Shown: positions 670-35,086 of the stretch, one piece after another | Layout of the letters: each line of letters opens with the position of its first letter | Numbering within the stretch: position 1 is the stretch's first letter | Assembly (NCBI GenBank): GCA_049515915.1 | Contig: JBEKTP010000006.1 | Span: 4,865-68,864, forward strand | Length of the DNA: 64,000 nucleotides | Direction of reading: 5' to 3' | From: Patescibacteria group bacterium | Lineage (GTDB): Bacteria; Patescibacteriota; UBA1384; UBA12157; JAENIV01 | The notes under the pieces: model-generated | What the model was told of the DNA's origin: nothing | Database searches by the model: none | The model's input: the letters and a program-made list of their open reading frames with translations, nothing else | Translations under genes and position numbers: made by a program

Positions 670-1563
670 TTATGTTCCGGTCAGCATCCGCTGGGCAGTT
701 TGATACCGCGATGATGTGGCGGCCACCACTTCGTCCGGCAAAGGCGGCATTGGGGGCTGCTTGTCCCAGCCGGTGCTTTCGAGATAGTCTCGCAACGGCT
801 GCTTGTCGAAACTACGCTGCGCTCTTCCAGGCAGCCAATCATCGACTGGCCAGAACCGCGACGAGTCCGGCGTCAGGACCTCGTCTACCAGAATCAATCG
901 ACCGTCATACCAGCCGAACTCGAGCTTGGTGTCCGCGATAATGATACCCCTTGTCCGCGCATAGTCAGCCGCCATCTCATAGACGGCCAGACTGCGATCC
1001 TCCATGAAGAGATACTCATCTTCGCCGACAATCTCTTTGGCCCGCTCAGGACTGATGTTTTCGTCATGAAGGCCGACCATTGCCTTAGTTGCCGGCGTCA
1101 GAATCGGTTGCGGCAGCCGGTCTCCTTCCTTAAGACCTCCTGGCAGCTGAATTCCGCAGACAGTTCCTGACTGCTGATATTCCTTTAAGCCGGAGCCGGC
1201 AAGGTACCCGCGAACAACACACTCAATCGGGACAACCTCCGCCCGCTTGACGATCATACTCCGACCCTTAAGCAGTTCAAGACGCGGCCGGAATTCGGCG
1301 GGTAGACTACTCAAATCTCGAGTCAAGAAGTGGTTCTCGACCACCTCTTGAGTAAGGGCGAACCAGAAGAATGACATCTCGGTGAGCACCCGACCCTTAC
1401 TTGGCACGGCTTTCAGCGCGACAACATCGAAGGCCGAGATGCGGTCAGTCGCGACGATGAGCAGTCTGTTTCCTTCCAGCGGATAAGTCTCACGGACCTT
1501 GCCGCGGAGCGGCCTTTTCGGAAACCATTCATCCGTCGTGTACAGCGTTTCCAACTTCTCCAC
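670..1563 (-). CDS. purC: Phosphoribosylaminoimidazole-succinocarboxamide synthase (SAICAR synthetase)
   Basis: 297 aa. LLIVATDRISAFD and the overall PurC architecture are present. Coding DNA is conspicuously GC-rich relative to its neighbours. Confidence 0.85.
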   Translation of the reverse strand: MEKLETLYTTDEWFPKRPLRGKVRETYPLEGNRLLIVATDRISAFDVVALKAVPSKGRVLTEMSFFWFALTQEVVENHFLTRDLSSLPAEFRPRLELLKGRSMIVKRAEVVPIECVVRGYLAGSGLKEYQQSGTVCGIQLPGGLKEGDRLPQPILTPATKAMVGLHDENISPERAKEIVGEDEYLFMEDRSLAVYEMAADYARTRGIIIADTKLEFGWYDGRLILVDEVLTPDSSRFWPVDDWLPGRAQRSFDKQPLRDYLESTGWDKQPPMPPLPDEVVAATSSRYQTAQRMLTGT

Positions 1564-2920: not shown

Positions 2921-3730
2921 TTGAAATATATTCTCATTGCTTTGCTGAATGCCATTTACGGATTAATGACCTTGCAAATGTTGACCAAAGATACGCCAGG
3001 TTATTATATTATCTTTGTCATCGCGATCGTTTTAGCCTTCCTGGGTTTAGCCGGCATCGTTTTATACATCATAATGCTCGTTTCCAACGCTCGTCATCAA
3101 CCCCCCAGTACCGAGTTAATTAAAAATTGGTTTCAGTTTACAAAAAACATCGATATTGTCTTAATCATTGGTCTCCTTTTTAGAGCTTTTATCCTGCAGC
3201 CATATATCGTCGATGGAAATTCGATGGAGACTAATTTCCACAACAACGAATACGTTTTAGTCGATCAAATCACTTATCATTTCAGAGCCCCCCAACACGA
3301 AGAAACGATCGTCTTTCATCCCCCCGTTGATCCAAGTCTAAATTATATTAAAAGAATCATTGGCTTACCTGGCGATACGGTCGCCATTTCAAACAACATC
3401 GTCACCGTTAATGGCCATGTGCTGACTGAGAACTATATTTACCCCGGCAGTACTACCGAGACTTCCCAACCAAACTTTAGCGTTACTTTAAAATCCAACC
3501 AATATTTTGTCATGGGTGATAACCGCGATCATTCTTCAGATTCCCGAGAATGGGGAGTGGTTCCTAAGGAAAATATTGTTGGCCGAGCCTGGTTTGTCGT
3601 TTACCCGACAAAATATTTTGGGCTGGTCAAAAACCCAACCTTTAATTTAATGACTATGTCTTCCCCTTCGGCTATCCTTAATTCAATTTCATCCCGGTTC
3701 TCTTTGAATGCCCTTGTAAAATATGCTTGA
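2921..3730 (+). CDS. lepB: Signal peptidase I
   Basis: N-terminal TM segments, catalytic Ser in VDGNSMETN, Lys in YIKRIIGLPGD, GDNRDHSSDSREWG box. Annotated start may be too far upstream and the 3' end overlaps the next gene. Confidence 0.8.
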   Translation: MKYILIALLNAIYGLMTLQMLTKDTPGYYIIFVIAIVLAFLGLAGIVLYIIMLVSNARHQPPSTELIKNWFQFTKNIDIVLIIGLLFRAFILQPYIVDGNSMETNFHNNEYVLVDQITYHFRAPQHEETIVFHPPVDPSLNYIKRIIGLPGDTVAISNNIVTVNGHVLTENYIYPGSTTETSQPNFSVTLKSNQYFVMGDNRDHSSDSREWGVVPKENIVGRAWFVVYPTKYFGLVKNPTFNLMTMSSPSAILNSISSRFSLNALVKYA

Positions 3731-4331
3731 CCTCATTATCGCTAATTTGCGGAAAATCTTTATAGAATTGTCCGACGGCATAAAATTTCGGCTCAACAAT
3801 CAAAGTGACCACGGCATCAACTTTTTTTTGTAATTGGGCTAAGGTTGAGGGCGAAATCGCCGGTGTGGCAACAATGATTTGACGCGGTTTCAAAGTTTTT
3901 AATTCCATCACCGCAACTTGAACAGTCAGACCGGTGGCCACACCGTCGTCAACTAAAAAAACAGTTTTTCCCACTAGCGGAATTGCTGGTTTCTTGCCCC
4001 CGTACAGATTCTTGCGGCGGATAATTTCTCTTCGCTCTTTAATGGCTTGGGTAGAAATATAATAAGGATTGAATTCTTCGTTTGGGTTCAAAATAATTTC
4101 ATGTTCTGAAACGGCGCCAATAGCATATTCCGGATTAGCCGGATGGCCAATTTTTCGGGTCACGATTATATCGAGCGGCAAACTAAGTTTTTCGGCAATT
4201 TCTGCCCCGACAACCACTCCTCCTCTTGGCAAAGCTAAAACTATTCCGTTTAATATTTTCGGCATTTTATTTTGAAGTTCTTCGGCCAGCTTGCGGCCGG
4301 CTTGAATTCGATCCCGAAACATTATGACCAT
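3678..4331 (-). CDS. Phosphoribosyltransferase-domain protein
   Basis: PRPP-binding motif VFLVDDGVATGLT, ~217 aa. Confidence 0.6.
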   Translation of the reverse strand: MVIMFRDRIQAGRKLAEELQNKMPKILNGIVLALPRGGVVVGAEIAEKLSLPLDIIVTRKIGHPANPEYAIGAVSEHEIILNPNEEFNPYYISTQAIKERREIIRRKNLYGGKKPAIPLVGKTVFLVDDGVATGLTVQVAVMELKTLKPRQIIVATPAISPSTLAQLQKKVDAVVTLIVEPKFYAVGQFYKDFPQISDNEVKHILQGHSKRTGMKLN

Positions 4332-4381
4332 AACGATAAATATTTTATCACTTCTGGTATAATAAGAATAGAGAAAAATAC

Positions 4382-6577
4382 ATGAAAGAATGTTATTTAT
4401 ACAAAAAGGCTGGCGATTATGCCGACTGCCAGGCCTGCAACCACCGCTGTCATATTTCGCCGTTTAGGCGGGGAATTTGCGGTGTTCGAGAAAATCACGA
4501 CGGCAAACTCTACACTTTAATTTACGGACGGATTATTGCGGAAAATATTGATCCCATCGAAAAAAAACCTTTATACCATTTTCTGCCTGGCACCAAAAGC
4601 CTCTCCATCGCCTCGGCCGGATGTAATTTAAAGTGCCCCTGGTGCTTTCCTCCGAAAACTAAAATCCTAACCAATCATGGATTAATGGATATTGAAAACA
4701 TTTGCAAAAATCCTCATAACATATCAGTTATCTCCCATACAGGTCAAAAAAGAAAGATTAAAACTGTCTTTCAAAGATCGTATAATGGCAAATTAATAAA
4801 AATTAAAGCTGGCTTCCTCCCTCTAACTCTAAATTGTACCCCTAATCATCAAATTTATTTTGCTGAAAAACCTTTTAAAGATAAGGTTAAAAAGATATCC
4901 GCCGAAAATCTCATAAGTAATCGACATTATCTAGCGATCCCTAAGAAACATTCATTTTCACAAAATATTGTTCTGGACAATAAAGCAATCTTAGAGCAAG
5001 TATCAAATAAATTTAGGATATCTCACAAAATATCTTTTGGAGATACCAAAAAAATTCTTGAACTTTCTAAAAATCAAACGTCAAAACAAATAGGACGAAT
5101 TTTTAATCTTCATCCTGCTTATGTTAGAACTTTACGATCCAAATTGAATAAAGAGAGTTTAACAAAAGAAGATTATTACTGGGCAAATAATGTTTTAATT
5201 GAAAAAGATTCGCGTATACATTTCAAAACCGAAAAAAAACCTTATCTATCACGTTTTTTTGAATTAGACGAAAATTTGGCTTTTCTTTTAGGTTACTATT
5301 GTGCTGAAGGAAATGTTACCCAATGTAAGAATCGTCCAAATTCATATTCTTTACATTTCTCTCCGGGCAAACACGAAATAAAAAATATACAAATTATTAA
5401 AGAAAAATTTATAAAAGTGTTTGGTTTACCGCTTAAAACAACTCAACGTCGCACTACTATAGAATTAAGTAACAGTAAAACTTCTATCGCTATTATCTTT
5501 AAAATTTTATGCGGCCATAATGCAAAATTTAAAAAAGTTCCTCAAGAACTTTTTCGAGTACATAAGACGGTACTTCAAGCATTCTTAGAAGGATATATTA
5601 TAGGCGATGGTTATCACGATAAGCAAGGATTAACTGTAAGCAATACTGTGTCTAAAGAATTGGCTTTAGGATTATATGCACTTTGGTCAAAATTAGGATA
5701 CTTGCCTAGATTTTATGAATGGCATCCAAAACCTTTCAAAATAATTGAAAACCGAAAAGTCAATCAATCTATCCTTTACTATGTAAAAGTCTGGCAAGGT
5801 AAAAGAAAAATAAAATCTCGATACTACGAAGATGATAAATTTTTTTATGTCCCAATATTAAACGTTAAAAGAAAACAATATTCAGGGCTAGTATATAATT
5901 TAGAAATCGAAAAAGACCATTCTTACTTGGCTAATTTTGTTAGTGTCGGTAATTGTCAAAACTGGGATATTTCTCAATGTACCAAAGGAAATATTGACCG
6001 GGCGGAGTTTACTAACACTCTTGGGATTGAAATGGAGCCGGAACAAATTATCGAACACGCCAAGAAAGCTAAAACTCCTTCGATTTCCTATACTTATACC
6101 GAACCAACTATTTTTTTGGAATTTGCTTTGGATACGATGAAACTGGCCAAAAAAGCTAAAATTAAAAATGTTTGGGTCTCGAATGGTTATATGACCAAAG
6201 AAACTTTAGATTTAATCAACCCATATTTAGATGCCATCAATGTCGACTTAAAAGGTTTCAGCGAAGAAAACTATTTAAAATATTCCGGCGGCAAACTTCA
6301 GCCGGTTTTAGATAATATTCGCGATATCTATAAACGCGGCATTCATCTTGAAGTAACAACCTTAATTATTCCCGGTATCAATGACGATAAAAAACAATTA
6401 TCCGATATCGCGGCATTCTTGGTCTCAATCTCGCCTAAAATCCCTTGGCATATTTCACGATTCTTCCCAGCTTATAAAATGACTGATACGCCGATCACGC
6501 CCATCGAGACTCTCAAACTCGCTGAGGCCCTTGGCAAAAAGGCTGGTTTAAAGTATATTCATTTGGGAAATATATGA
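4382..6577 (+). CDS. AmmeMemoRadiSam-system radical SAM enzyme interrupted by an intein
   Basis: N-extein ...SIASAGCNLKCPW and C-extein CQNWDISQ... splice to CNLKCPWCQNW, a Cx3Cx2C motif. The remainder matches PFL-activase-like rSAM. Followed in operon by AMMECR1 and a LigB/MEMO-type gene. Confidence 0.8.
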   Translation: MKECYLYKKAGDYADCQACNHRCHISPFRRGICGVRENHDGKLYTLIYGRIIAENIDPIEKKPLYHFLPGTKSLSIASAGCNLKCPWCFPPKTKILTNHGLMDIENICKNPHNISVISHTGQKRKIKTVFQRSYNGKLIKIKAGFLPLTLNCTPNHQIYFAEKPFKDKVKKISAENLISNRHYLAIPKKHSFSQNIVLDNKAILEQVSNKFRISHKISFGDTKKILELSKNQTSKQIGRIFNLHPAYVRTLRSKLNKESLTKEDYYWANNVLIEKDSRIHFKTEKKPYLSRFFELDENLAFLLGYYCAEGNVTQCKNRPNSYSLHFSPGKHEIKNIQIIKEKFIKVFGLPLKTTQRRTTIELSNSKTSIAIIFKILCGHNAKFKKVPQELFRVHKTVLQAFLEGYIIGDGYHDKQGLTVSNTVSKELALGLYALWSKLGYLPRFYEWHPKPFKIIENRKVNQSILYYVKVWQGKRKIKSRYYEDDKFFYVPILNVKRKQYSGLVYNLEIEKDHSYLANFVSVGNCQNWDISQCTKGNIDRAEFTNTLGIEMEPEQIIEHAKKAKTPSISYTYTEPTIFLEFALDTMKLAKKAKIKNVWVSNGYMTKETLDLINPYLDAINVDLKGFSEENYLKYSGGKLQPVLDNIRDIYKRGIHLEVTTLIIPGINDDKKQLSDIAAFLVSISPKIPWHISRFFPAYKMTDTPITPIETLKLAEALGKKAGLKYIHLGNI
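4643..5953 (+). mobile_element. Intein (437 aa) with LAGLIDADG-type homing endonuclease domain
   Basis: Block A CFPPKTKILTNHGL starts at Cys (nt 4643). LAGLIDADG-like motifs LLGYYCAEGN and LEGYIIGDGYHD are present. It ends ...FVSVGN (Asn, nt 5951-5953) followed by Cys+1. Length is a multiple of 3. Confidence 0.75.
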
Positions 6578-7404
6578 ACTTGAATACCCGTATCGGAAAG
6601 TTAAAATTAAAAAATCCGATTATTTTAGCTTCGGGTACTTTTGACCGTGGTATTACCACAAAAATTGACATCAATAAATTAGGCGGATTGGTCACGAAAA
6701 CCATTACCCTAAAACCACGTGAAGGTAACCCTCTCCCTCATATTTTTAAAACACGCTACGGCTGGTTAAATAGTGTGGGGTTAAAAAATATGGGGTTAAA
6801 AAAATACCTGACAGAAGAATTGCCATTTTGGAAAAAGTATAACACCCAGATTTTCACCAGTATCGGCGGCGAGAATACCAGAGAATATATCAAAATTGCC
6901 AAATCATTGGAGAGTTTAGTATCTTCTCTCGAAGTCAATGTTTCCTGCCCTAATGTTGATGGATTATTTTTTGGTGCCGATCCTAGAAAACTCAAGAATC
7001 TTATTTCAGCAATCCGTAAAAATTTTAAAGGATTTATCGCGGTTAAATTATCCCCTAATGTTTCGGATATTATCTTACCGGCAAAAGTGGCCATGGCTGG
7101 CGGAGCCGATGCGCTCATCATCGCCAATACTTATTTGGGCTTAGAGCTTATTAAGTCAAAACCGGTCTTCCAGCAAGTTTTCGCCGGATATTCCGGCGGA
7201 GCGGTCAAACCCTTAACCATGAGGCTCGTCTGGCAAACAAGCCACGTTCTAAAATGCCCAGTCATTGCCAGTGGCGGAGTGGAAAACACCCAAGACGTCA
7301 TTGATTATTTGACCGCTGGCGCCAAGGCTGTCCAAATCGGCTCCGCTAACTTTTTAAATCCAAAGGTTTCTGTTAAGATAGTTGATGAATTACGAAGGAG
7401 ATAA
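6574..7404 (+). CDS. Class-1 dihydroorotate dehydrogenase-family TIM-barrel flavoprotein (PyrD-like)
   Basis: LKNPIILASGTFDRG N-terminus, active-site NVSCPNV, GG..N motifs. ATGA overlaps the stop of the rSAM gene. Confidence 0.65.
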   Translation: MNLNTRIGKLKLKNPIILASGTFDRGITTKIDINKLGGLVTKTITLKPREGNPLPHIFKTRYGWLNSVGLKNMGLKKYLTEELPFWKKYNTQIFTSIGGENTREYIKIAKSLESLVSSLEVNVSCPNVDGLFFGADPRKLKNLISAIRKNFKGFIAVKLSPNVSDIILPAKVAMAGGADALIIANTYLGLELIKSKPVFQQVFAGYSGGAVKPLTMRLVWQTSHVLKCPVIASGGVENTQDVIDYLTAGAKAVQIGSANFLNPKVSVKIVDELRRR

Positions 7405-8202
7405 ATGTCTTTAAATTTTGCCGCTATTTCGCCTCACCCGCCCATCATTATTCCCGAAATCGGCAGTAAAGAAGATTTGCAAAAAGTGTCACAGACTATT
7501 TTCGGCATGAGAAAACTGGCCAATCATTTTAGAGAAGCGGAAATAGACACGTTGGTCGTAATTTCGCCGCACTCCCTGATTTATCCCGACCGATTCAATA
7601 TTTGCGGCATGAAAAAACTCTTCGGCACCTTCGCCTCGTTCGGCACCCCAGATTTAATGATGGAGTTCAGTAATGATATTGATTTCGCTATTGAGTTGGA
7701 TACGGCCGCCAAAAAAAATAGTGTGGAAACCCTGCTCTACAATAATGACGGTGAGTTCTACGAGCTTGATCACGGCACCATGGTGCCGCTTTACTACCTT
7801 ACTCAAAATCAAGAATCGCCTTTAAAAATCGTTCCGGTAACCTACTCCGATCTGCCGCGTGCGGATCACTTTTCGTTCGGTCAAATTATTCGCGATGTCG
7901 CCGTTAAATATAATGGCCGAGTGGGCGTTTTGGCCTCCGGCGATTTATCTCACCGGCTCATTCAAAGCCCAGCTGGAAAAGAATTTGACGATAAACTCAT
8001 TCAAAACATAAAGGCCAGTGATACCAAGACAATTCTTTATTACGATGAAGATTTCGTCGAAAAAGCCGGGGAATGTGGCTATCGTTCGATTTTGATTTTG
8101 CTTGGCCTCTTAGACGGGTTGAAAACGAAACCTGAGGTTATTTCCTACGAAGGGCCGTTCGGCGTCGGTTATTTAGTGGCTAATTATATTTTAAAGGATT
8201 AA
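7405..8202 (+). CDS. LigB/MEMO1-superfamily (class III extradiol dioxygenase-like) protein, putative AmmeMemoRadiSam partner B
   Basis: 265 aa, AISPHPP...SPHS...His-rich LigB-like signature. Zero-gap operon position between the rSAM/DHOD genes and AMMECR1. Confidence 0.5.
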   Translation: MSLNFAAISPHPPIIIPEIGSKEDLQKVSQTIFGMRKLANHFREAEIDTLVVISPHSLIYPDRFNICGMKKLFGTFASFGTPDLMMEFSNDIDFAIELDTAAKKNSVETLLYNNDGEFYELDHGTMVPLYYLTQNQESPLKIVPVTYSDLPRADHFSFGQIIRDVAVKYNGRVGVLASGDLSHRLIQSPAGKEFDDKLIQNIKASDTKTILYYDEDFVEKAGECGYRSILILLGLLDGLKTKPEVISYEGPFGVGYLVANYILKD

Positions 8203-8206
8203 AAAA

Positions 8207-8713
8207 ATGAACCCGCCTGTTTCAACGGCTAAAAAGGCTATCGAAAATTACGTCAATTCTGGCCAAATCATTACGGTCGAAAACCCAGATCACCATCGAG
8301 CCGGCTGTTTCGTTTCAATTCATAAAAAGTCTTCCGGCGAACTTCGCGGTTGTATTGGCACAATTTTACCGGCTTGTAAAAATTTGTCTTTGGAAATTAT
8401 CAACAATGCCATTTCGGCCTGCCAAGATCCGCGTTTCGAGCCCATTACCCAAAAAGAGCTTGACGATTTGAATATTTCAGTTGATATTTTATCCGAGCCC
8501 GAGCCAATTGAATCGACGAAATCACTCGATCCCAAAAAATACGGCGTCATTGTTAAATCAAAAGATGGCAGAACCGGCCTGTTATTACCCGACTTGGATG
8601 GAATCGATGACGCGATGTATCAAATTGCCATCGCCCGCGAAAAAGCCGGCATTAGCGTCAACGAACCAATTTATCTTTATCGATTTACCGTCGAAAGATT
8701 TAAGGAACTATAA
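8207..8713 (+). CDS. AMMECR1-domain protein (AmmeMemoRadiSam system protein A)
   Basis: Hallmark ELRGCIGT motif, 168 aa. Confidence 0.85.
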   Translation: MNPPVSTAKKAIENYVNSGQIITVENPDHHRAGCFVSIHKKSSGELRGCIGTILPACKNLSLEIINNAISACQDPRFEPITQKELDDLNISVDILSEPEPIESTKSLDPKKYGVIVKSKDGRTGLLLPDLDGIDDAMYQIAIAREKAGISVNEPIYLYRFTVERFKEL

Positions 8714-10555
8714 ATGCAGGTCGCTCAAATCGTTGTCAAAGTTCGGACGACTAAAGAGGATATTTTTGATTATAGTATTCCGCCGAATTTGTTGGCGATA
8801 GTAAAAATTGGAATTTTGGTGGAGGTAAATTTTCACGGACGAAAAGTGGAAGGAATTATTGTTAGCCTTAAAAGGTCATCTAAAATCGAGAAGCTTTTAC
8901 CAATACTTTCGATCACTGATCCAAATCCAGTGGTCGATGATATCCATATTCGGCTTGCTTTCTGGATGTCAGATTACTATTTAGCGCCAATGGGTAAAAC
9001 GCTGTTCGAAAATGTCGTGCCAGTCGCCAAAAGATCTCTAAAAATTGAGGGGGAATACTCTAATCTTCAATCAAATTATATTCGACCGAAAAATCCAGAG
9101 AAGAACTCGCTGGCGATCGCCGATTTTAAAACACGAATAAACTTTTATTTAAAGATGATCGAAAAAACTTTAGCCCAAAACCGATCCGTCATTATTTTAG
9201 TTCCCGATTTATCGATCATAAAATATTTCACATTCTCCAGGCTGAGAGGTAAAAAATTTAGCAAAAGCGATATTTCCATTCTACACGCCGGCTTAACTAA
9301 AACTGGACGCTGGACTGAATGGAGCAAAATCCGATCAGGTCAAACCAAAATAATTATTGGCTCTTTGTCGGCCTTGTTTGCGCCAGCAAAAAACCTCGGA
9401 TTAATTATCATCGATCAAGAGGAAAATGAAACATACAAGAACGATCGTCAGCCGCGCTTTAGTGCTGTGGGAGTAGCTCAAAAACTTGGTGATCTTTCCG
9501 GCGCTTCCTTGATTCTTGGCTCAGTCTCGCCCCGCGTCGAAACATATTGGCAAGCTAATCGCGAAAGATATAAAATATTTCGTAAAGCCGCTCTAGGTAA
9601 GTCAACCATTGTCAATATGGCCTTCGAAAAGGGAATAATTTCCCATCCTCTCGAACAAAAAATCACTGATACTCTTAAAAAAAATAATAAAATTTTACTG
9701 GTCCTTAATCGTAAGGGTGAAGGAACCAAATTTTCTTGCCCTGATTGCGGCTGGATCGCCATCTGCGAGAAGTGCGGCCTGCCGCTTATTCCGCAAAAAA
9801 GCGAGAACGTCTGCTACCATTGCGAGAGATCGTTTTTAAAGCCTTTATTTTGTCCCAAATGCAAAAGCCCCATTTTAAAACCCGCTGGACTTGGTACGAC
9901 CAGACTGAAAAAAATATTGGAAAAACTCTATCCCAAAACAAAAATTATTATTATCGAAAAAGATTCGCATCAAGAAAGCCAGGCTTGGAATATCGCAATT
10001 ATCACTTCATATGCCTTAAAATTGCAATTTCCAAAAATCGGTTTAGTCGGAATTATCGATGCGGATCAAACCTTGAGTCTGCCCGATTTTTCTACGACGG
10101 AAGAATTATTTGAAACATTTTACAAATTTTTAAGACTCGGTAATGAAAAGGTTATCCAAACTCATTTGATCGATCACTCGGTTATCAAAAGTCTCGCTGC
10201 GCTGGACTATCACCAATTTCTACGATCTGAACTGAGTGAACGAAAAAATGGCAATTTTCCACCCTTTAGACAATTGATCCGTCTCGAATATCAAAATCCT
10301 GATTTGAAAATTGCGGCAGAGGAATGTCGGCAAGTCTTTGAATTGATTAACAAATTAAATGACGATTCCACCACCCAAATCTCAGAACCGTACCAACCGT
10401 TTATCCAAAAAAAACGCCATAAATTTCGTTACCAAATCGTTATCAGGACCAAAAATATCTTTTTAAAAACAACTCTCGGTGAAAAGCTTAAGATGTTTCT
10501 TAAATCCCTGCCCAGGGGCTGGATCATTGACGTCGACCCGATCAGTTTACTTTGA
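8714..10555 (+). CDS. priA: Primosomal protein N' (PriA)-like, helicase motifs degenerate
   Basis: N-terminal 3'-DNA-binding-like domain and C-terminal Cys4x2 zinc module (CPDCGWIAICEKCG...CYHCER...CPKCKSP). No recognisable GKT Walker A. Confidence 0.5.
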   Translation: MQVAQIVVKVRTTKEDIFDYSIPPNLLAIVKIGILVEVNFHGRKVEGIIVSLKRSSKIEKLLPILSITDPNPVVDDIHIRLAFWMSDYYLAPMGKTLFENVVPVAKRSLKIEGEYSNLQSNYIRPKNPEKNSLAIADFKTRINFYLKMIEKTLAQNRSVIILVPDLSIIKYFTFSRLRGKKFSKSDISILHAGLTKTGRWTEWSKIRSGQTKIIIGSLSALFAPAKNLGLIIIDQEENETYKNDRQPRFSAVGVAQKLGDLSGASLILGSVSPRVETYWQANRERYKIFRKAALGKSTIVNMAFEKGIISHPLEQKITDTLKKNNKILLVLNRKGEGTKFSCPDCGWIAICEKCGLPLIPQKSENVCYHCERSFLKPLFCPKCKSPILKPAGLGTTRLKKILEKLYPKTKIIIIEKDSHQESQAWNIAIITSYALKLQFPKIGLVGIIDADQTLSLPDFSTTEELFETFYKFLRLGNEKVIQTHLIDHSVIKSLAALDYHQFLRSELSERKNGNFPPFRQLIRLEYQNPDLKIAAEECRQVFELINKLNDDSTTQISEPYQPFIQKKRHKFRYQIVIRTKNIFLKTTLGEKLKMFLKSLPRGWIIDVDPISLL

Positions 10556-10605
10556 ATAATATCGTCTCAATAAAAAATCTGCTAATATAGATACGAAGGA
10601 GTGGT

Positions 10606-11766
10606 ATGCGAATTGGTATTTTTAGTGAATGCTACAATCCCGTTCTCAATGGCGTCGTCGTTTCGATTAATACCTTCAAGGCCGAACTCGAAAAACGCGG
10701 TTACGAATTTTATATTTTTACCACGGCCAGTTTAAATAAACAAGAAAATGATCCTCGTATTATTCGATACCCCATCATGCTGCCGTTTAAATCTAAAGGT
10801 GGAAAATACCCGATTGCTTGGCCGCAAAACGCCAAAAAGACCGCTAAAAAGATTGCTCAGCTCAATTTAGATCTAATTCATAGTCAGCATTTATTGGGGC
10901 TGGGTCAAACCGGCCGAAAGACCGCTACAATTCTGGGAATTCCTAAAGTTTTAACCTATCACACCTTACTGGCGGAATACGCCCACTATGTGCCGCTTTT
11001 CCCCGGCCTCGCCAAGCGGTATTTAATCCGCCAAAGCCGTAATATTTGCAACCGCTACGATCAAATTATCACTCCTTCGCCCTCAATGGCTAAAGTTTTA
11101 AGCAAGTACGGCGTCGTCAAACCGATCGAATCTATTGCGACCGGCGTTAACTTAGATGAATATGACCAGCCGTTTAGCCGAGAAGAATTAAAAGCCCGAT
11201 GGTCAGTCCCCACGGATAAAAAATTACTTCTTTATGTCAGCCGAATTGCCAAAGAAAAAAATATTGATTTACTGTTGGAAGCGGTTAAATCATTGACCAA
11301 GAAACGCTCAGATTTTCATCTTTTAATGATCGGGGGTGGACCGGAGCTTAATACCTACAAAAAAATGGTTCAGAATAGCAATCTACGCTCGGTCGTAACT
11401 TTTACTAATATGCAGCCGAAAAACGAAACGGTTAAATATTTTGGCGCGGCGGACATTTTCACCTTTCCTTCCTACACTGAAACTCAAGGCATTGTGATCA
11501 CCGAAGCGATGGCCGCTGGCGTTCCAGCGGTCGCCATTAATAAAATGGGGCCTTCCAATATTATTAAAAACGGCGTGGACGGATATTTAACCGACTTGAA
11601 TGTTGACGAATTTACTGATAGAATTAATCGCTTGCTCAATAACGACGAACTTCGAAAAAAAATGGGGCAAGCGGCGAAAGCTAACGCCCAAGAATATTCA
11701 ACTAAAGCTTGTGCCGATAAAATGGAAGAGTTATATGTCAAAGTCACGCATCATCACCGTTCCTAA
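10606..11766 (+). CDS. Glycosyltransferase family 4
   Basis: GT-B fold with ETQGIVITEAMAAGVPAV (the E-X7-E region), 386 aa. Confidence 0.75.
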   Translation: MRIGIFSECYNPVLNGVVVSINTFKAELEKRGYEFYIFTTASLNKQENDPRIIRYPIMLPFKSKGGKYPIAWPQNAKKTAKKIAQLNLDLIHSQHLLGLGQTGRKTATILGIPKVLTYHTLLAEYAHYVPLFPGLAKRYLIRQSRNICNRYDQIITPSPSMAKVLSKYGVVKPIESIATGVNLDEYDQPFSREELKARWSVPTDKKLLLYVSRIAKEKNIDLLLEAVKSLTKKRSDFHLLMIGGGPELNTYKKMVQNSNLRSVVTFTNMQPKNETVKYFGAADIFTFPSYTETQGIVITEAMAAGVPAVAINKMGPSNIIKNGVDGYLTDLNVDEFTDRINRLLNNDELRKKMGQAAKANAQEYSTKACADKMEELYVKVTHHHRS

Positions 11767-13099
11767 CCCATTTCTTAAGGAAAAAACTGAGAAAATCAGT
11801 TCTCTTGACCGTGAAGTCCAAATTCAAATTAAAGAAATGATTGCCACCTTACGTCGCGAAGGCGGCATTGGCTTGGCCGCCAACCAGCTCGGTTACAAAA
11901 ACCAAGTTATTGTGATTGAATTTATCGACCCCGAAGAAAAAAATCACCTTCCCTTAACGATCTTTATTAACCCGGAAATTGTCAAATATTCCGGCGAAAC
12001 CGAATGTTTCGACGAGGGCTGTCTTTCGGTTCCCAAAATTGAATTTGAGCTCGAGCGGCCAGCCAAACTTAAACTCAAATATGAAGATGAGCACGGCCAC
12101 AAACTTAAAATCGCGCCTAAAGGACTTTTGGCCCGAATTTTGCAACACGAGATTGATCATTTAAATGGAATTTTATTTATCGAACGAGCGCGGGCTCAAC
12201 TTTTCAAAAATTACCCCGAGCTTAAAAACACTCAAATTGCTTTTTTGGGTTCGGGTGAATTCGGCGCGGTCATTTGCGAAGGTCTAATCCATTTGGGCGT
12301 AAATTTAAAAATTTATACCGAAGCGGCAAAAGCGGCCGGTCGAGGAAAACTTTTGCAATCAACGCCAGTCGCCGATCGGGCAAAAAAATTTGGCAAACAA
12401 TATACCGAAATTACCGACATCAAAAAGGCAGTGATAGACGATTGCGACCTTTTAATCTGCGCTGATTTTGGCCAAATATTACCCAAACAAATCTTAGAGA
12501 TTCCTACCATTAAGGCGATTAATATTCACCCCTCCTTGTTGCCGAAATATCAAGGACCTTCCCCGATTCAGACCGCTCTCCTACAAGGAGAAAAGGTTAC
12601 CGGAGTTTCGATTATTGAGATGACTGTAAAAATTGACGAAGGGCCAATTATCACTCAAACCGAGATTGATATTGCCGAAAACGACGATTATACCACTTTA
12701 AGAGATAAACTGGCCACCGTCGGCATTAAACTTCTGGCAAAAAATTTGGGCGAAATTGTTCGCGGCAACCTCGAAGGAAATCCTCAACCCAAAAACTTTA
12801 TGATCAAAACCCGTAAATTTGCTAAAGCGGACGGTGAAATTTCGTGGAATAAAACCCCTCCAGAAATCGAACGTCAAATCAGAGCTTTCCAACCATGGCC
12901 TGGCACATACACCCTCATTGACAACCAGAGACTGTTAATTCACGCCGTCCATATGGAAAAAAAACGGTTGGTTTTAGATTCCGTCCAGCTTGAAGGCAAA
13001 ACACCAACCGATTTCGGCAGTTTCCTTCGCGGCTGGCACGGTCAGAAACCGAAATGGTTAAGTAAAATCAAAATCAATAAAAATGTCTCCACTGGTTGA
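11735..13099 (+). CDS. Peptide deformylase fused to methionyl-tRNA formyltransferase (Def-Fmt single polypeptide)
   Basis: Def motifs GIGLAANQLG, EGCLSVP, QHEIDHLNG, followed in the same frame by Fmt motifs IAFLGSGEFG and NIHPSLLPKYQGPSPIQ. Start chosen at MSKSRIITVPNPF, since the ORF-track start at 11600 overlaps the GT4 gene. Confidence 0.75.
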   Translation: MSKSRIITVPNPFLKEKTEKISSLDREVQIQIKEMIATLRREGGIGLAANQLGYKNQVIVIEFIDPEEKNHLPLTIFINPEIVKYSGETECFDEGCLSVPKIEFELERPAKLKLKYEDEHGHKLKIAPKGLLARILQHEIDHLNGILFIERARAQLFKNYPELKNTQIAFLGSGEFGAVICEGLIHLGVNLKIYTEAAKAAGRGKLLQSTPVADRAKKFGKQYTEITDIKKAVIDDCDLLICADFGQILPKQILEIPTIKAINIHPSLLPKYQGPSPIQTALLQGEKVTGVSIIEMTVKIDEGPIITQTEIDIAENDDYTTLRDKLATVGIKLLAKNLGEIVRGNLEGNPQPKNFMIKTRKFAKADGEISWNKTPPEIERQIRAFQPWPGTYTLIDNQRLLIHAVHMEKKRLVLDSVQLEGKTPTDFGSFLRGWHGQKPKWLSKIKINKNVSTG

Positions 13100-13176
13100 C
13101 AGAATTAGAATTAAAAGTTATAATAATAACCTGAAGGGGTTTTTATTTAAAAATTTTCTTTAAGGATTTAAAATTA

Positions 13177-14271: not shown

Positions 14272-14946
14272 ATGACTTATCATATCATCACAACTCAACC
14301 ATCAACTTTCGAATCCTTTTTAAAAACGGGTTTAATTGCGCGTGGAATCGAGAACAAAATCATCGATGTCAAAATTCATAGTCTTTACGATTTTGCGGCC
14401 GACAAACACCGTACCATCGACGACTCGCCCTATGGCGGCGGCCCCGGCATGGTTTTGCGAGTTGATATTATGGATAAAGCCTTATCCAAACTTAAAACTA
14501 AAAGCTTAAAACTAAAAACTATTTTATTAACACCGCAAGGAAAAAGATTCACTCAAAAAGATACCAAGAGACTATCGAAGGAGAGGGAATTAATTCTCGT
14601 TTCCGGCCGTTTCGAGGGATATGACGAAAGAATCCGCCAACTTATTGACGAGGAAATATCAATCGGCGATTACATTTTAACTTCCGGCGATTTGCCAGCG
14701 ATGGTGTTAATTGACGCTATTTCCCGCCATCTGCCAGGCTTTATTCAAGAAAAAGAATCTCTTAAAAACGAATCATTTAACAATAATTTGCTGGAATATC
14801 CTCAATACACTCGCCCACCCGAATATAAAAAACTAAAAGTGCCCGCCATACTCCTTTCGGGCGACCATGCCAAAATTAAAAGATGGCGCGAGACTGCCTC
14901 CGCCCAAAAAACCCGGCAAAAAAGACAAGATCTCCTAAATATTTGA
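14272..14946 (+). CDS. trmD: tRNA (guanine37-N1)-methyltransferase
   Basis: LVSGRFEGYDERI and GDYILTSGDLPAMVLIDAISR SPOUT-knot motifs. Confidence 0.85.
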   Translation: MTYHIITTQPSTFESFLKTGLIARGIENKIIDVKIHSLYDFAADKHRTIDDSPYGGGPGMVLRVDIMDKALSKLKTKSLKLKTILLTPQGKRFTQKDTKRLSKERELILVSGRFEGYDERIRQLIDEEISIGDYILTSGDLPAMVLIDAISRHLPGFIQEKESLKNESFNNNLLEYPQYTRPPEYKKLKVPAILLSGDHAKIKRWRETASAQKTRQKRQDLLNI

Positions 14947-15005
14947 CATTTCTCCTCGTGAGAGGTATAATACTACCAGAAAGATTGATAATTAAAGGAG
15001 GATTG

Positions 15006-16076: not shown

Positions 16077-16388
16077 ATGACCATGGTCCAGACTGCGGCA
16101 GATAACGTCCTGTCGCCAAGCGAGTTTTGCAACCGAGTCGCGGCCGGCGTGACGGCTCAAATCATCACTGATACACACCCAGCCCAGCAAGATGACATTC
16201 ACCGCCTGATGGCCAGACAGTATGCCTTGAGTTTTGCGCTTGAATACTACAGGCAACACTCAGGCGAATTGGCGACCATCGAAGGCGACGAGAAGGAAAT
16301 CGCTGAAGCTATAAAGGCTTTCGTCGATGATGCCGTAAAAAAGATCAGCCCACGAGTCATCCAGCAACTCAGCAAAACTCGTGATTGA
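16077..16388 (+). CDS. Hypothetical protein on a short GC-rich cassette
   Basis: GGAGG RBS, 103 aa, no recognisable family. GC-rich DNA bounded by terminators on both sides. Confidence 0.4.
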   Translation: MTMVQTAADNVLSPSEFCNRVAAGVTAQIITDTHPAQQDDIHRLMARQYALSFALEYYRQHSGELATIEGDEKEIAEAIKAFVDDAVKKISPRVIQQLSKTRD

Positions 16389-16396
16389 AGAGATCC

Positions 16397-16430
16397 GGCG
16401 CCCCGCTTAGCGGGGCGCCGACTCATTTTA
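16397..16430 (+). terminator. Strong rho-independent terminator
   Basis: GGCGCCCCG CTTAG CGGGGCGCC perfect 9-bp stem followed by a T-rich tract. Confidence 0.6.
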
Positions 16431-19825: not shown

Positions 19826-21352
19826 TTACCGATTTTCGAATAATCCTTTCTGATTATCAATTTCTTCCGCTTCGGCTTCTTTGTGGTGCGAATGATACCA
19901 ACCGGTTGGCAATTTCGGCTGTTTGCCTAAAAGTAGTTCATTGATAGTTAAAATTTGAATTTTGGGAAATTCAGTTGGCAAATATTCGACAGAAAAATCT
20001 CCTACGGCAAATGCTTCCTCTTTCATTGGTTGGGTTGGCTCATCGAGAGTTATAAAGACGCCGGCGTCGGCGCGCTCTCTCTCAATATCGCCTTTTAGTG
20101 TGGCAATATCACCACGATTGATATGCCCACTTTTAACTTGAACAATTGCCTTGCCGATTTCCTGACTGTCGTGATTCAGTTTCTTATAAAAAGTAATTAT
20201 TCCGTCAACGCCTTTGTCAGCGCCGCCCATATTTTCTTGGGTTTTGTTTTGCGCCGGCATAGCGTTGACTAAACTTAAAGCCCAATATTCAAATTCGAAA
20301 CGATTTTTTCGCGCCAATTCTTTAGCACCCGACAAATCTTTCGGCAAACCGTCAACATTGATTTTGATATTCTTATTGGCAAACTTATTTTGTAAGCGAG
20401 ATTTGATTAGGTTAATTGCAAGTGTAGTGATATCAATTCCTATCCATCTACGATTTAATTTCTCCGCCACCGCGACGGTTGTCCCACAACCGCAAAACGG
20501 ATCCAAAACCCAATCACCTTCATTCGAAGAAGCTTTTATAATCCGTTCTAATAACGCCTCGGGTTTTTGCGTCGGGTAGCCGAGACGTTCTTTTGCCGTC
20601 GAACCAATTGGTGGCATTTGCCAAACATCACCGATTTTTACACCTCTGTTTTCGTCTTCCAAATAAACTTTGTATCTTTTTCCCTTTACCGTGTGCCAGC
20701 GCCATCTTTTCCCTTGATCGTCAACATATCTATAATCTTTCTTGATCCAATCTCCGTAAGGTTCCCACTGACTGTTAAAAGTAAAGGTATCAGATTTCGA
20801 ATAAAAAAGAATGATGTCGTGAAGCCGCTGGAATCTACCAGAAGACGCTGTCCAGCGTCTGTAATGCCATACGATTTCATTCTGAATATTTTCTTTTCCA
20901 AAAATAACATCCATTACAATTTTTAAATAATGGCTGGCAGTTGGGTCGCAATGAAGATAAATAGAACCGGTGGATTTTAAAACGCGTTTTAATTCAATCA
21001 GACGAATGGTCATCATCGTTAAATAGGCCAAAATATCGTTTTTGCCAACCATTTTTTCGAATGCCAGCATCAAATCCGAGATATTTTGATTGATTTTGGT
21101 TTGAGAAGTTTTAACTCCGACTAATTCTGCAAAAACATGTTCGGCTTCGTGCGTCCAATGCCAAGAATCTTCAAACGCTTGCACTTGCGCCGGACTATCA
21201 ACTAAGCCTTCTTTATAAAGAATGTTGTAGTTTCGATTGGAATTAAACGGCGGATCGAGATAAATTAAATCGATTGATTCGCTGGGAATTTTTTCGCGAA
21301 GAATCTCTAAATTATCACCGAAATACAAGGTTCGGTTGGTTAATTCATTCAT
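19826..21352 (-). CDS. Beta-class DNA methyltransferase (N4-cytosine/N6-adenine) with C-terminal Mrr-like PD-(D/E)xK domain
   Basis: Motif IV IYLDPPFNSN comes before motif I VLDPFCGCGTTVAVA, the beta-class order. C-terminal ~140 aa has ADKGVDGIITF...AIVQVKSGHI, resembling the Mrr catalytic signature. Confidence 0.8.
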   Translation of the reverse strand: MNELTNRTLYFGDNLEILREKIPSESIDLIYLDPPFNSNRNYNILYKEGLVDSPAQVQAFEDSWHWTHEAEHVFAELVGVKTSQTKINQNISDLMLAFEKMVGKNDILAYLTMMTIRLIELKRVLKSTGSIYLHCDPTASHYLKIVMDVIFGKENIQNEIVWHYRRWTASSGRFQRLHDIILFYSKSDTFTFNSQWEPYGDWIKKDYRYVDDQGKRWRWHTVKGKRYKVYLEDENRGVKIGDVWQMPPIGSTAKERLGYPTQKPEALLERIIKASSNEGDWVLDPFCGCGTTVAVAEKLNRRWIGIDITTLAINLIKSRLQNKFANKNIKINVDGLPKDLSGAKELARKNRFEFEYWALSLVNAMPAQNKTQENMGGADKGVDGIITFYKKLNHDSQEIGKAIVQVKSGHINRGDIATLKGDIERERADAGVFITLDEPTQPMKEEAFAVGDFSVEYLPTEFPKIQILTINELLLGKQPKLPTGWYHSHHKEAEAEEIDNQKGLFENR

Positions 21353-21592: not shown

Positions 21593-24500
21593 CTAATAAT
21601 TAGCGGTAGAGATATAGTAAATAATCGTCTGATAAGTACTCGCACTTTGAGCCGTCGGCGCCACAACTTTGTAAGTTAATGTATAAATATCATCGGCGTT
21701 GCCGGTCGAGCCATTGACGGCCGCTTCGTGGTCGGCAACAATATCGCCGGGTGCAGTTTGGGAAAAAGCGCAAAATTTGGTTGAGCTTGTCCATTTATCC
21801 ACCCCGCCGATATCGGGGTCGTTTGAAGTATAACCAAAACCTGTCCCGCTCCAAATCGATGGCGAAGCATATGAACTGGCATAGTTAGGAATTGTTAATG
21901 CGCCGTTGACAATCGAAGTTAATAAACCGTTGGCATAAGCTCGAACCGAATATCCGCCGGCGGCGTTAGTGACAGTGTGGACGGCCGTCGTTTTGGTATC
22001 GGTCCAGAAATTGCCGGCGTTGAGATTGGAAAATGTCACGGTATTGGAATCAAGGGAAAATGATAAAGTCGGCACCACCTGCTGAGCAGAGGCGCTAACG
22101 GCATTTCCGATATTGCCGGCATTATCAAAAGCTTTCACGGAAAAATAATAGTTAATACTTGTTTGTAAATTTAAGCCGGTGGCCGTGGCGGAAGTTCCCG
22201 TGCCGTTGTCGGTCCAAGAGGCGATATCAGAACCGCCAGCGGTGGTACCAACCGCATATTGATATTTCAAAAGCCCCGAAACCGTCGCATCAAAACCGCT
22301 CCAGGTCGCACCAAGCTGCGTTAGCGAGCCGGTGTTAGCACTATTAGTAACGCTGCCGCCGGTCGGGGCGGTGGCGTCAACTTTGAGATCAACCGTTGCT
22401 TGAACTCCAAAATAAGCTGGACTAGCTGATGTTGCACCATGGTTATCAATTCCATAGACTCGCCACCAATAACCGGTCGACGAGTCTGACAAAGTCATCG
22501 AAGCAGAACCAACCGCATAGGTTCCGCCACTTTGGCCGACTTGATAAGCAAAAGTTGTGCCTGAAGAGGAAAGTGTACCGTAGGTGTAATCCAAAACCAA
22601 ATGAGTAAAGTTGGAATCTGTATTGTCGATTTGGATTTCATATTTAACAGTGTCGCCGGTATCGGGATCGGTAATATTGAAGCCGAACCAAGGTTGGTTA
22701 ACATTGGTCCAAGCACTCTCGGCAATATTATTGGCTCCGGAAGTTGTTCCCTGGGTTAAACTTGTTGGCGTATTGGGCGGATGGTTGGTCACAAACCAAT
22801 TGGTATTGTTGCCGTCGTCGGTATAATGAGTGGGATTAATGGGAGAAGCGGCTTGATTGTTAGAATTTGCCGGCGTAACGTAATCAACGCTCCAAGCTGT
22901 CGGATTAATATTCCATTGACTCGAGCCTGAACCGCCATTCCGCCCTAAGGTAATGAGTTGTCCTGAAGCACCAGTACAGGTCCAAGTTCCGGAAACGGTT
23001 GTGGTTGAACCGGAATCAAAATTGATTGTTCTTGCTGTCGTCGCCGTAGCTGTAAAATTGTAAAAAGATGTATTGCCTGAAACAATCTGGGTCGAACCGC
23101 CAGCGCCAGTAAAAGTCACCGTGCCGCCGGAATTATTGGTAAAGGTGCCAGAATTTATCCAGTTACCGGCTAAATCAATACTATATTTATTGGTCGCGTT
23201 ATTATTTAAAGTGGCGTTAGTATTACTAAGAGTCAAAGTGCCGGTCATAGCCGCCGAATTAGCGGCCGTTAAATTACCGGTCAAAGAATAAGTTGTTGTC
23301 GAAGTCGGCGTCAAAGTTAAATTATTGTAGGCGGCTGTCGTAATATTGGTTCCTGTGCCCGAGCCGGTATAAACTACCGTTGAGCTGGTCGTCGTCAATG
23401 TGCCTGATTTAGTAAAAGGTGTGCCGGTGCCGGCAATAGTCAAAGTTTTACTAGTAATGTCTAAAGTATTGTTAATATAAAGATTCAGCGTCGTTAATTT
23501 CATATTAGTTTGAGCTGAAATCGCCATGCCGGACGAACCGTTAATTGCCACTGTACCGAGATCTTGAAGACTGGCAGTGTTATCGTAAAAATTATCCGTG
23601 CCGGCAGGACCATCGAAAGTCGTGGTGCCGCCTTTGGTAAAAGTAGTTCCCGAAGCTAACGTAAAAGAGCCGGCGTAAGTTTGATTTTGACTATTGCAGT
23701 TATAGATACCAGTCTGAAGATTAAAAGCACCATTGGTATCAACTTGACCGGTAATGGTTGCCGTATTGCCGCCACCAACATTAATGGTTAAATTATTAAA
23801 ATTAGTGACGCCGATTTGCGGCGCGACGCCGGTAAAAATCACCGTACCGGTGGCGGTAAAAGTGCCAGCAGATTTAACCCATGTCGAAGCGCCGGTGCCA
23901 GTTACCGTAATCGTATTGCCGTTATCGGCCAGAGTTCCACCTGATCCGGTTTGATTGTATTGGCCAATCGAAATCGGCGTCGATGATGTCAGTGTCGTCG
24001 TGCCACTGGTAGAAGAATAATTTAATGCGCCCGTCACAGTAAAAGCAGCATTAGATGTCATAGTTGCCGTACCAGAAACAGTTAAGCTGCTGCCGATGGC
24101 AGTTACGCCAGTCATGGTTTTAGCACTGGTACCGCTTAAAGTCAGATTATAATAAGAAGTTGGATTGACTGTTTGAACTCCGCTAGCATTATAGTTGACC
24201 GTATTACTTGCAGCTGATGCGGTAAAAGTGGCCACGCCAATCGAACTGCCGCCAAAATTTAAAGTGCCGGTCGTGCCGTTGCCATCTGTCCAAGTGCTAC
24301 CCGACCCGCCGGAAGCAAGTGTTGTGCTGATAGTTACCGTGCCGCTATTGGTGACTGATGCGCCCGCACCAATGGTTGTATTTGGCATCGTCGTTGTTGT
24401 TGAACCGCTAATTGTTTTTCCTGAACCGGTAAAAGTATGAATGCCGGTAGAACTGGTCCAAGTAGTGGCGTTATTAGTTAAACTGCCACCAAAGTTAATA

Positions 24501-26410: not shown

Positions 26411-26483
26411 ATATCTATACCAAAGATAGGCAGAAATGTCTTAAAATATCTAAACTGCCTTTCTTATTTTTTTGTTTTCTATC

Positions 26484-29273: not shown

Positions 29274-29312
29274 ATTTTTACTGATTATTTCAAAAAATCA
29301 AATTAAATTTTA

Positions 29313-33006: not shown

Positions 33007-33018
33007 TTTATTTCCTTA

Positions 33019-34471: not shown

Positions 34472-34483
34472 GTCGACTCCTTT

Positions 34484-35071: not shown

Positions 35072-35086
35072 AACCTCCTTCGCCCC

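Follow-up and report, generated by a model that had tools for sequence, protein, structure and literature searches.

We suggest that a dihydroorotate dehydrogenase (DHOD) gene lying inside an AmmeMemoRadiSam gene set of a Berkelbacteria-like genome of the candidate phyla radiation (CPR) is a passenger there: a canonical PyrD, lineage-specific and dispensable, which sits in a mixed housekeeping operon and is co-expressed with the functional unit of this operon. That unit is a triad of a radical S-adenosylmethionine (rSAM) enzyme, a LigB-type protein and AMMECR1. We favor this explanation with moderate confidence. The locus belongs to a stretch of 64,000 nucleotides (nt) of contig JBEKTP010000006.1 of a Patescibacteria group bacterium, with a GC content of 0.424; the whole stretch is referred to as the window. 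The AMMECR1/Memo(LigB)/radical-SAM triad occurs widely, its human homologues are linked to disease, and to our knowledge no substrate of the system is known. A reliably co-inherited enzyme would be a rare clue to this substrate. A reading of the DNA made from the sequence alone (the sequence-only reading) had proposed that both a DHOD-family flavoprotein and a PriA-like protein extend the triad operon.

The elements of the locus and of its immediate surroundings are:

3678-4331, minus strand: TT1426-type phosphoribosyltransferase gene, divergent from the rSAM gene (PF00156; 132 bits to TT1426, PDB entry 1WD5).
4355-4363, plus strand: extended -10 promoter-like element TGgTATAAT, read from the sequence, 18 nt 5' of the rSAM start codon.
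4382-6577, plus strand: AmmeMemoRadiSam rSAM gene (amrS-type) with an intein; N-extein 4382-4642, C-extein 5954-6577.
4643-5953, plus strand: intein of 437 amino acids (aa) with a LAGLIDADG homing endonuclease (Pfam LAGLIDADG_3, Intein_splicing, Hom_end).
6574-7404, plus strand: class-1B-type DHOD catalytic subunit, PyrD-like, 276 aa, with no PyrK (NF005574, PF01180).
7405-8202, plus strand: LigB/TK2203-type system protein B (amrB), 265 aa (PF02900, 134 bits).
8207-8713, plus strand: AMMECR1, system protein A (amrA), 168 aa (TIGR04335, 118.7 bits against a cutoff of 99; PF01871, 144 bits).
8714-10555, plus strand: PriA-like protein, 613 aa (TIGR00595, 305 bits against a cutoff of 230; Pfam PriA_3primeBD, PriA_C and zinc ribbon).
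10606-11766, plus strand: GT4 glycosyltransferase (Pfam Glycos_transf_1, Glyco_transf_4), outside the triad and a candidate member of the transcription unit.
11735-13099, plus strand: def-fmt, a peptide deformylase - methionyl-tRNA formyltransferase fusion (Pfam Pep_deformylase, Formyl_trans_N, Formyl_trans_C); its start position follows the gene of 454 aa called on L169, an identical contig (related loci are given L numbers throughout).

The five open reading frames (ORFs) from the rSAM to the PriA-like gene are joined by an ATGA stop/start overlap at 6574-6577, a TAA/ATG junction with no gap at 7404/7405, a 4-nt spacer at 8203-8206 and a second TAA/ATG junction with no gap at 8713/8714. All four are as the sequence-only reading gave them for its five co-directional genes (-4, 0, 4 and 0 nt). 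Gaps of at most 5 nt separate 12 of the 46 same-strand neighbor pairs of the window, where the median gap is 70 nt; four of the 12 are those of the cluster, and 8 of the 42 pairs beyond it are equally tight. The four tight junctions in series are denser than the window norm, though not unique. As proof of shared function they were discounted: the tightness runs on into priA, the GT4 gene overlaps def-fmt, and the 8 of 42 outside pairs match it.

The TGgTATAAT element is likely to be the start of the transcription unit. A consensus scan of the plus strand found no consensus promoter or strong terminator from 4382 to 13099, and the signals which follow are a promoter matching 12/12 (13096-13124) and, farther 3', a strong terminator (16396-16420). 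Since no promoter or terminator precedes 13096, the transcription unit likely extends past PriA through the GT4 and def-fmt genes, to 13099, and we infer co-transcription of the whole run. Hence, the five-gene packing described earlier stands, but the operon probably does not end at the PriA-like gene. The GT4 gene is syntenic in nearly all related loci. The phosphoribosyltransferase gene lies 5' of rSAM in many of them and is missing in L166, L168 and L171. As a separate observation, def and fmt are fused as one ORF of about 437-462 aa lineage-wide (window, L001, L004, L166-L173), and this ORF overlaps the 3' end of the GT4 gene.

The three triad proteins are each recognized by their family models above curated cutoffs, and in this respect, as in the adjacency and common direction of the genes, the locus resembles the known AmmeMemoRadiSam system (TIGR04335/TIGR04336/TIGR04337). 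It differs from it in a B protein that is far more LigB-like than Memo-like, in the intein of the rSAM gene and in the DHOD gene between the rSAM and B genes. The rSAM protein scores 257.4 bits against TIGR04337 (cutoff 220), the match falling in two stretches owing to the intein. AMMECR1 carries the ELRGCIGT (LRGCIG) motif, and its nearest solved structure is PH0010 (1VAJ). The sequence-only reading had named both proteins correctly, AMMECR1 with its motif and the first ORF as rSAM, but the 437-aa intein was missed. Its class-1 DHOD-like assignment with the motif NVSCPNV also holds; the designation 'LigB/MEMO-type' for protein B is borne out for LigB and not for Memo.

Protein B scores 134 bits with the LigB model and 31 bits with the Memo model (PF01875), and it reaches 37.3 bits with TIGR04336, whose cutoff is as low as 26, over residues 96-248 in the C-terminal half only. 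Across the family, residues H56, H183, E223 and C224 do not vary, and H11 varies little. An AlphaFold2 model (pLDDT 85, pTM 0.88) has TK2203 (5HEE, TM score 0.79) and extradiol dioxygenases as the nearest folds, with MEMO1 at rank 33 or below. Protein B thus belongs to the LigB/Memo superfamily and is not Memo proper. A separate true Memo gene was not found in the window by Pfam annotation of most remaining ORFs of at least 70 aa. With TK2203 and the class III extradiol dioxygenases (LigB, HPCD, aminophenol dioxygenase) it shares the fold at TM scores of 0.70-0.79, together with the His/His/Glu metal-ligand positions and the catalytic His, at an identity of only about 20%; with Memo it shares a Cys directly after the Glu, the invariant E223-C224 pair. 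Unlike the dioxygenases, it is partnered with AMMECR1 and an oxygen-sensitive rSAM enzyme, and elsewhere it is fused to AMMECR1. Such partners in a presumed anaerobe make a ring-cleaving dioxygenase chemistry of protein B doubtful.

LigB-AMMECR1 fusions are encoded in L150 (9983-11338, 451 aa), where the rSAM gene comes after the fusion, and in L165 (1818-3305, 495 aa). This Rosetta-stone evidence identifies the LigB-type protein as the true AMMECR1 partner in these organisms. The rSAM, LigB-type and AMMECR1 genes occur together in most of 80 sampled loci described below; in L141 four unrelated genes stand between LigB and AMMECR1. Because the triad is kept together in distant genomes, with LigB and AMMECR1 even fused, we take it as the likely functional core of the operon. 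Neither fusion locus, L150 or L165, has a DHOD gene or any pyrimidine-related neighbor. A literature search returned no experimental paper on AmmeMemoRadiSam function, and searches on AMMECR1 with LigB, DHOD in CPR, Berkelbacteria pyrimidine synthesis and TK2203 returned nothing functional.

The DHOD protein itself looks ordinary. It is 100% identical to a Patescibacteria protein that NCBI names dihydroorotate dehydrogenase, and its contig was recovered in assemblies of many samples. It scores 301.1 bits with NF005574 (cutoff 269) and 216 bits with PF01180, contains NVSCPNV, and stays narrowly below the cutoff of the subfamily model TIGR01037 (257.6 against 270). Its top match among solved structures is the PyrD subunit of Lactococcus lactis DHOD B (1EP1, 201 bits); class 1A follows at 87 bits. 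Residues K42, N66, N72, N122, C125, N127, K158 and N185 align with K48, N72, N78, N132, C135, N137, K170 and N197 of 1EP1. Seven of these eight are invariant in 35 CPR relatives, and N122 is replaced by Asp in 7. The active-site K, N, C, N, K and N and the FMN motifs thus correspond one for one to those of the L. lactis enzyme (1EP1/1EP3), and by its residues the protein is a canonical class-1B PyrD catalytic subunit. It differs from the L. lactis protein in that there is no PyrK electron-transfer subunit and no pyr operon close by, the host operon being a non-pyr one, and at the C-terminus it lacks about 20-30 residues relative to 1EP1 and many members of its clade.

Two other origins of the gene were considered and rejected. 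Recent horizontal transfer is ruled out by GC content (0.409, similar to the adjacent genes) and GC content at third codon positions (GC3) like those of the neighbors, and by an identity to the window that drops alongside that of LigB. A decaying relic is ruled out by active-site residues which are invariant over 47-77% identity.

The linkage was surveyed from both sides. On the DHOD side, about 78 CPR-clade proteins are 47-77% identical to the window protein, and the next tier consists of ordinary bacterial PyrD at 46% or less. Gene maps were read for ten CPR-clade DHOD genes, which with the window and seven distinct loci of the LigB sample make 18, near-identical loci being counted once. Nine of the ten mapped clade members, including the complete Berkelbacteria genome CP011213.1, have the gene at the rSAM/LigB junction. 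The exception is L002, where it stands next to a BcrAD/DUF2229 gene and pentose-phosphate genes. For many further clade members the length of the contig agrees with that of a contig bearing a LigB-family match. The order rSAM-DHOD-LigB-AMMECR1-PriA is also found in relatives with a DHOD of no more than 46-77% identity. The sequence-only reading had been ready to regard the gene as a chance pyrD if no related locus showed the linkage; the same order is present in relatives, CP011213.1 among them.

On the LigB side, metagenome contigs were scanned with an alignment of LigB, and the proteins of the window were mapped onto the 80 loci of 39-79% identity thus obtained. DHOD is directly 5' of LigB in 8 of the 44 loci with a readable junction, and in the other 36 rSAM is 5' of LigB and there is no DHOD; 14 more loci, in which 1.2 kb or more of upstream sequence is available and contains no DHOD, are probable negatives. 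A neighbor-joining tree of LigB does not group the loci that carry DHOD: they are dispersed between loci without it, and two of them, L134 and L166, branch more deeply. This pattern fits an old gain followed by repeated loss, and repeated gain might produce it too. As a control, 80 ordinary non-CPR class-1B pyrD loci (36-45% identity) were taken from among the matches listed in a scan of a genome collection; in none of these listed loci is a gene for rSAM, LigB or AMMECR1 present within 10 kb of pyrD. The proposed extension of the triad operon by DHOD is thus upheld within the lineage, where the survey of gene neighborhoods places nearly every mapped CPR-clade DHOD gene at the junction, but not as a property of the system, as the gene is absent from 36 of the 44 loci, from distant systems and from the vicinity of the triad in all listed controls.

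The spacing on the two sides of the gene differs between loci as follows:

rSAM to DHOD, -4 nt: window, L004/L103 and L117.
rSAM to DHOD, -8 nt: L100.
rSAM to DHOD, 0 nt: L166.
rSAM to DHOD, +2 nt: L168.
rSAM to DHOD, about 1300-1400 nt, with opposite-strand genes: L001, L090, L107 and L111/L167.
DHOD to LigB, -4 to +42 nt: every DHOD-bearing locus.

The 4-bp overlap whose conservation had been put forward as a check is therefore kept in the first group of relatives and is not kept in the other loci. Elsewhere the cargo found just 3' of rSAM includes a PaaX-like gene, small acidic proteins, a Y1 transposase, 433-477-aa proteins and secreted proteins and, by sequence inspection only, a 4-helix-bundle protein and a toxin-antitoxin-like pair. 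An opposite-strand insert of about 1.3-1.4 kb with a Y1 (IS200/RAYT-like) transposase and a small acidic protein recurs between rSAM and DHOD in L090, L107, L111, L167, L172 and L173.

The DHOD might instead serve the rSAM enzyme as a replacement reductant, passing FMN electrons to its Cys-rich N-terminus or its [4Fe-4S] cluster in the way PyrD passes them to PyrK in class 1B. The protein is indeed of class-1B type without PyrK, its gene shares the ATGA overlap with the rSAM gene, and the rSAM protein carries an extra N-terminal CX2CX3CX9C motif. However, most related rSAM genes have no DHOD beside them, and in several genomes insertions uncouple rSAM from DHOD, whereas DHOD and LigB are never split. 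The FMN/FMNH2 potentials of DHODs are, moreover, generally too high for the reduction of radical-SAM clusters. We consider such a role very unlikely.

A more serious competitor of the passenger explanation makes the DHOD a functioning accessory. The triad would act on a pyrimidine-like ring, and the flavoenzyme would oxidize or reduce the C5-C6 bond in the substrate or the product of the triad; the TT1426-type phosphoribosyltransferase and, in some genomes, CTP synthase would then join the same pyrimidine theme. Several observations speak for this view or weigh against the DHOD being a mere passenger. From the DHOD side the linkage is nearly obligate, 17 of the 18 CPR-clade genes with a readable map being at the rSAM/LigB junction. 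Insertions occur only 5' of DHOD; its spacing to LigB is always tight and never broken, and the 4-bp overlap with rSAM is found in the window, L004/L103 and L117. PyrK, PyrB, PyrC, PyrE and PyrF were not detected by tblastn with queries from the control loci, either in the window or within 10 kb on both sides in L001-L005, whereas the control pyrD loci among the matches listed have PyrK within 10 kb in 52 of 80 cases and at least one other pyr gene in 57 of 80. CTP synthase (PyrG) stands between LigB and AMMECR1 in L166 (9845-11464) and directly after LigB in L126, L128-130 and L135/L144, AMMECR1 not being detected between PyrG and PriA in L128-L130. DHOD and CTP synthase are the sole two recognizable biosynthetic cargo enzymes of the operon, and both are enzymes of pyrimidines. 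Many CPR genomes, finally, are reported to lack de novo nucleotide synthesis, which would leave a canonical PyrD without a pathway.

On the other side, about 80% of homologous loci keep the triad without DHOD, and distant systems lack it. The orotate-binding residues are the same as in true PyrD, so that they give no hint of a new substrate, and opposite-strand mobile genes part rSAM from DHOD in at least five loci. PyrG and DHOD each resemble one or two insertion events within sub-clades, and the argument from a pyrimidine theme is post hoc. The block of PriA, GT4 and def/fmt is as conserved as the genes upstream of it, although it is made up of functionally unrelated genes; in this lineage, therefore, a kept gene order says little about a common function. 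An accessory role of the DHOD is thus possible but less likely than a passenger's place; we regard it as unlikely.

The remaining nucleotide genes of the window bear on the same point. Pfam annotation of most remaining ORFs of at least 70 aa found none of the other de novo genes (pyrB, pyrC, pyrE, pyrF, carAB) in the window. It does contain a Dus gene and the following:

670-1563, minus strand: solitary purC (Pfam annotation).
31774-35626, minus strand: tightly packed operon of the thymidylate cycle with SHMT, DHFR, thymidylate synthase (ThyA), dCMP deaminase and a dCTP deaminase/dUTPase-like gene.
38999-39454: NDK.

The solitary purC indicates that biosynthetic genes are scattered singly in this genome, and the thymidylate operon, NDK, Dus and purC together indicate that the organism keeps nucleotide-interconversion genes.

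The fifth gene of the cluster requires a separate explanation. The PriA-like protein retains the 3'-DNA-binding domain, the Cys-rich zinc region and the C-terminal domain, and it has no Pfam match to DEAD, ResIII or Helicase_C. Its P-loop position reads IADFKTRI in place of the Walker A GxxGSGKT, and DQEE stands in place of DEEH (DExH). The alignment to Escherichia coli PriA begins just past the P-loop; the linker is shortened, and the winged-helix segment is largely missing. Compared with PriA of E. coli and Klebsiella pneumoniae (6DCR, 4NL4; 222 bits), the CPR protein can be aligned in its 3'-DNA-binding domain, in the scaffolds of both helicase lobes, in the zinc region and in the C-terminal domain; Walker A and DEEH are altered in it and the winged-helix segment is largely missing. 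The same degeneracy of Walker A and DExH, with most of the winged-helix segment likewise missing and the other domains retained, in 35 CPR orthologues (loci including L001, L004 and L088-L148) suggests a PriA which may be naturally helicase-dead throughout the lineage. The earlier assignment as PriA-like is supported by the family score; the loss of both ATPase motifs had not been remarked on.

At almost every locus sampled, including those where LigB identity is as low as about 40%, PriA comes after AMMECR1, and 0-14 nt separate the two genes. This constancy, and the lineage-wide degeneracy of its Walker A and DExH motifs, would suit a protein which has no ATPase activity, as predicted, and is a functional member of the system rather than a replication-restart protein, which would link the triad to DNA. 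But PriA itself precedes GT4 and def-fmt in related loci, the fusion-type systems L150, L152 and L156 are without PriA, its DNA-binding, zinc and C-terminal regions are intact, and the helicase-dead K230R variant of E. coli PriA reportedly still assembles primosomes. We therefore find membership of PriA in the system very improbable. The order priA-def-fmt is, as we take it from the B. subtilis genome, a common bacterial housekeeping order, and with so widespread an order behind it priA is better read as a neighbor than as an extension of the system. It probably belongs to the priA/def/fmt string, and the claim that the PriA-like gene extends the AmmeMemoRadiSam operon is not sustained.

The rSAM ORF of 731 aa contains the intein as residues 88-524, and the predicted spliced product has 294 aa. 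The intein ends are matched by TIGR01445 and TIGR01443. The insertion reads GCNLKCPW/CFPPK…FVSVGN/CQNWDISQ and lies just before the third Cys of the CX3CX2C [4Fe-4S] motif, so that the +1 residue of the C-extein is this third cysteine. The motif is split in the gene and is restored, as GCNLKCPWCQNW, only in the predicted spliced product. The extein spliced in silico gives a single unbroken alignment with orthologues of 293-294 aa that have no intein (84% identity to L001, 69% to L004); these are continuous over the junction: GCNFRCLWCQNWDISQ. The intein DNA has a GC content of 0.297 and a GC3 of 0.204, and the values for the exteins are 0.456 and 0.380. Its residues include Cys1 (C88), the block B motif TPNH (TxxH), the terminal N524 and the +1 C525, and the two LAGLIDADG motifs are LLGYYCAEGN and FLEGYIIGDGY. 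The penultimate residue is Gly; in 11 homologues read it is G, S, C, K or A and never His. Some active inteins are known without the penultimate His.

In Cys1, the TPNH block, the two LAGLIDADG motifs, the terminal Asn and the +1 Cys, as well as in its insertion within the most conserved motif of the host protein, the intein resembles the LAGLIDADG-type inteins found in catalytic motifs of essential enzymes. It differs from them in that the host is an AmmeMemoRadiSam rSAM protein, the +1 nucleophile is itself the third Fe-S-ligand Cys and the penultimate His is absent. No intein match was found in any of the related loci compared. Of 5.8 billion proteins searched, about 40 are related to the intein; the host is almost always a PFL-activase-like/AmmeMemoRadiSam radical-SAM protein, and it comes from Patescibacteria, Micrarchaeota or Anaerolineae. 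The insertion site is the same in all ten intein sequences read across both junctions. The literature search found no paper describing this intein allele.

Hence, we propose the following course for the locus. In the Berkelbacteria-like genome amrS, pyrD, the LigB-type amrB, amrA, the priA-like gene, GT4 and def-fmt would form one long mixed housekeeping transcription unit, with the LigB-type/AMMECR1/radical-SAM triad as its functional core.

The rSAM enzyme would become functional only after protein splicing excises the intein and thus restores the CX3CX2C cluster motif.

The DHOD, an FMN-dependent class-1B-type PyrD, most likely interconverts dihydroorotate and orotate, as its conserved residues suggest. 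Its gene may have entered the amrS/amrB slot once in the lineage, been inherited in place and been lost repeatedly. It would be expressed together with the triad, probably with translational coupling to amrB, and the triad presumably does not need it.

The adjacency of priA would reflect the position of the triad 5' of a conserved priA-def-fmt string.

Other features of the window, outside the locus, are:

13096-13124 and 14943-14971, plus strand: two promoters that match the sigma-70 consensus perfectly (12/12), one 5' of the S16 gene and the other 5' of a gene string including L25.
16396-16420, plus strand: strong terminator with 11 bp, all GC, after a 103-aa ORF at 16077-16388.
19826-21352, minus strand: 508-aa protein with N6/N4 DNA methylase and Mrr-type restriction-endonuclease domains.
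Within 21593-30425, minus strand: ORF of 1605 aa without a Pfam match; downstream of it, a 262-aa ORF that matches bacterial Ig-like domains weakly, below the Pfam cutoffs.
Within 21593-30425, minus strand: three more ORFs of 324-370 aa with no Pfam match.
39559-40233, plus strand: 224-aa protein, HTH_3 (XRE-type) fused to an Hsp20/alpha-crystallin domain.
53407-54039, minus strand: 210-aa ORF with a weak reverse-transcriptase (RVT_1) match, which could be a retroelement fragment.

The tmRNA gene (38553-38866, minus strand; tag AKPNLAPALALA) and the SmpB gene (35704-36123, plus strand) lie about 2.4 kb apart, and the window has seven tRNA genes.

The triad, class-1B PyrD, PriA and LAGLIDADG inteins are all of already known kinds; what is new here are variants of them, none of which overturns current understanding. 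These are a pyrD that has no PyrK and is fixed between amrS and amrB in one CPR lineage, a LigB-type partner in place of a Memo-type one, confirmed by the AMMECR1 fusion, an intein allele at an Fe-S-ligand cysteine of the rSAM enzyme, and a lineage-wide PriA without ATPase motifs. The intein belongs to a family specific to the AmmeMemoRadiSam rSAM, placed on an Fe-S-ligand cysteine and spanning CPR bacteria, DPANN archaea and Anaerolineae.

The DHOD is a weak but testable clue to the chemistry of the triad, as it is restricted to one CPR lineage, dispensable there and ordinary-looking as a PyrD. It raises the question whether the DHOD-bearing genomes possess the rest of the pyr pathway. Contexts of Memo/AMMECR1/rSAM genes were reportedly tied to nucleotide-base modification by Burroughs et al. 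in 2019, with which an accessory role of the DHOD in the triad would agree. The boldest reading, that the triad of Berkelbacteria-like CPR carries out pyrimidine-ring chemistry, with the PyrK-less DHOD, whose gene always abuts the LigB-type one, acting on its substrate or product in a non-canonical route to, or modification of, orotate or a uracil-like base, appears to us quite improbable. On this reading the TT1426-type phosphoribosyltransferase and, in some genomes, CTP synthase would contribute to the route, and the organisms would have no other de novo synthesis of pyrimidines. If true, it would offer the first lead to what the AMMECR1/Memo/radical-SAM system acts on.

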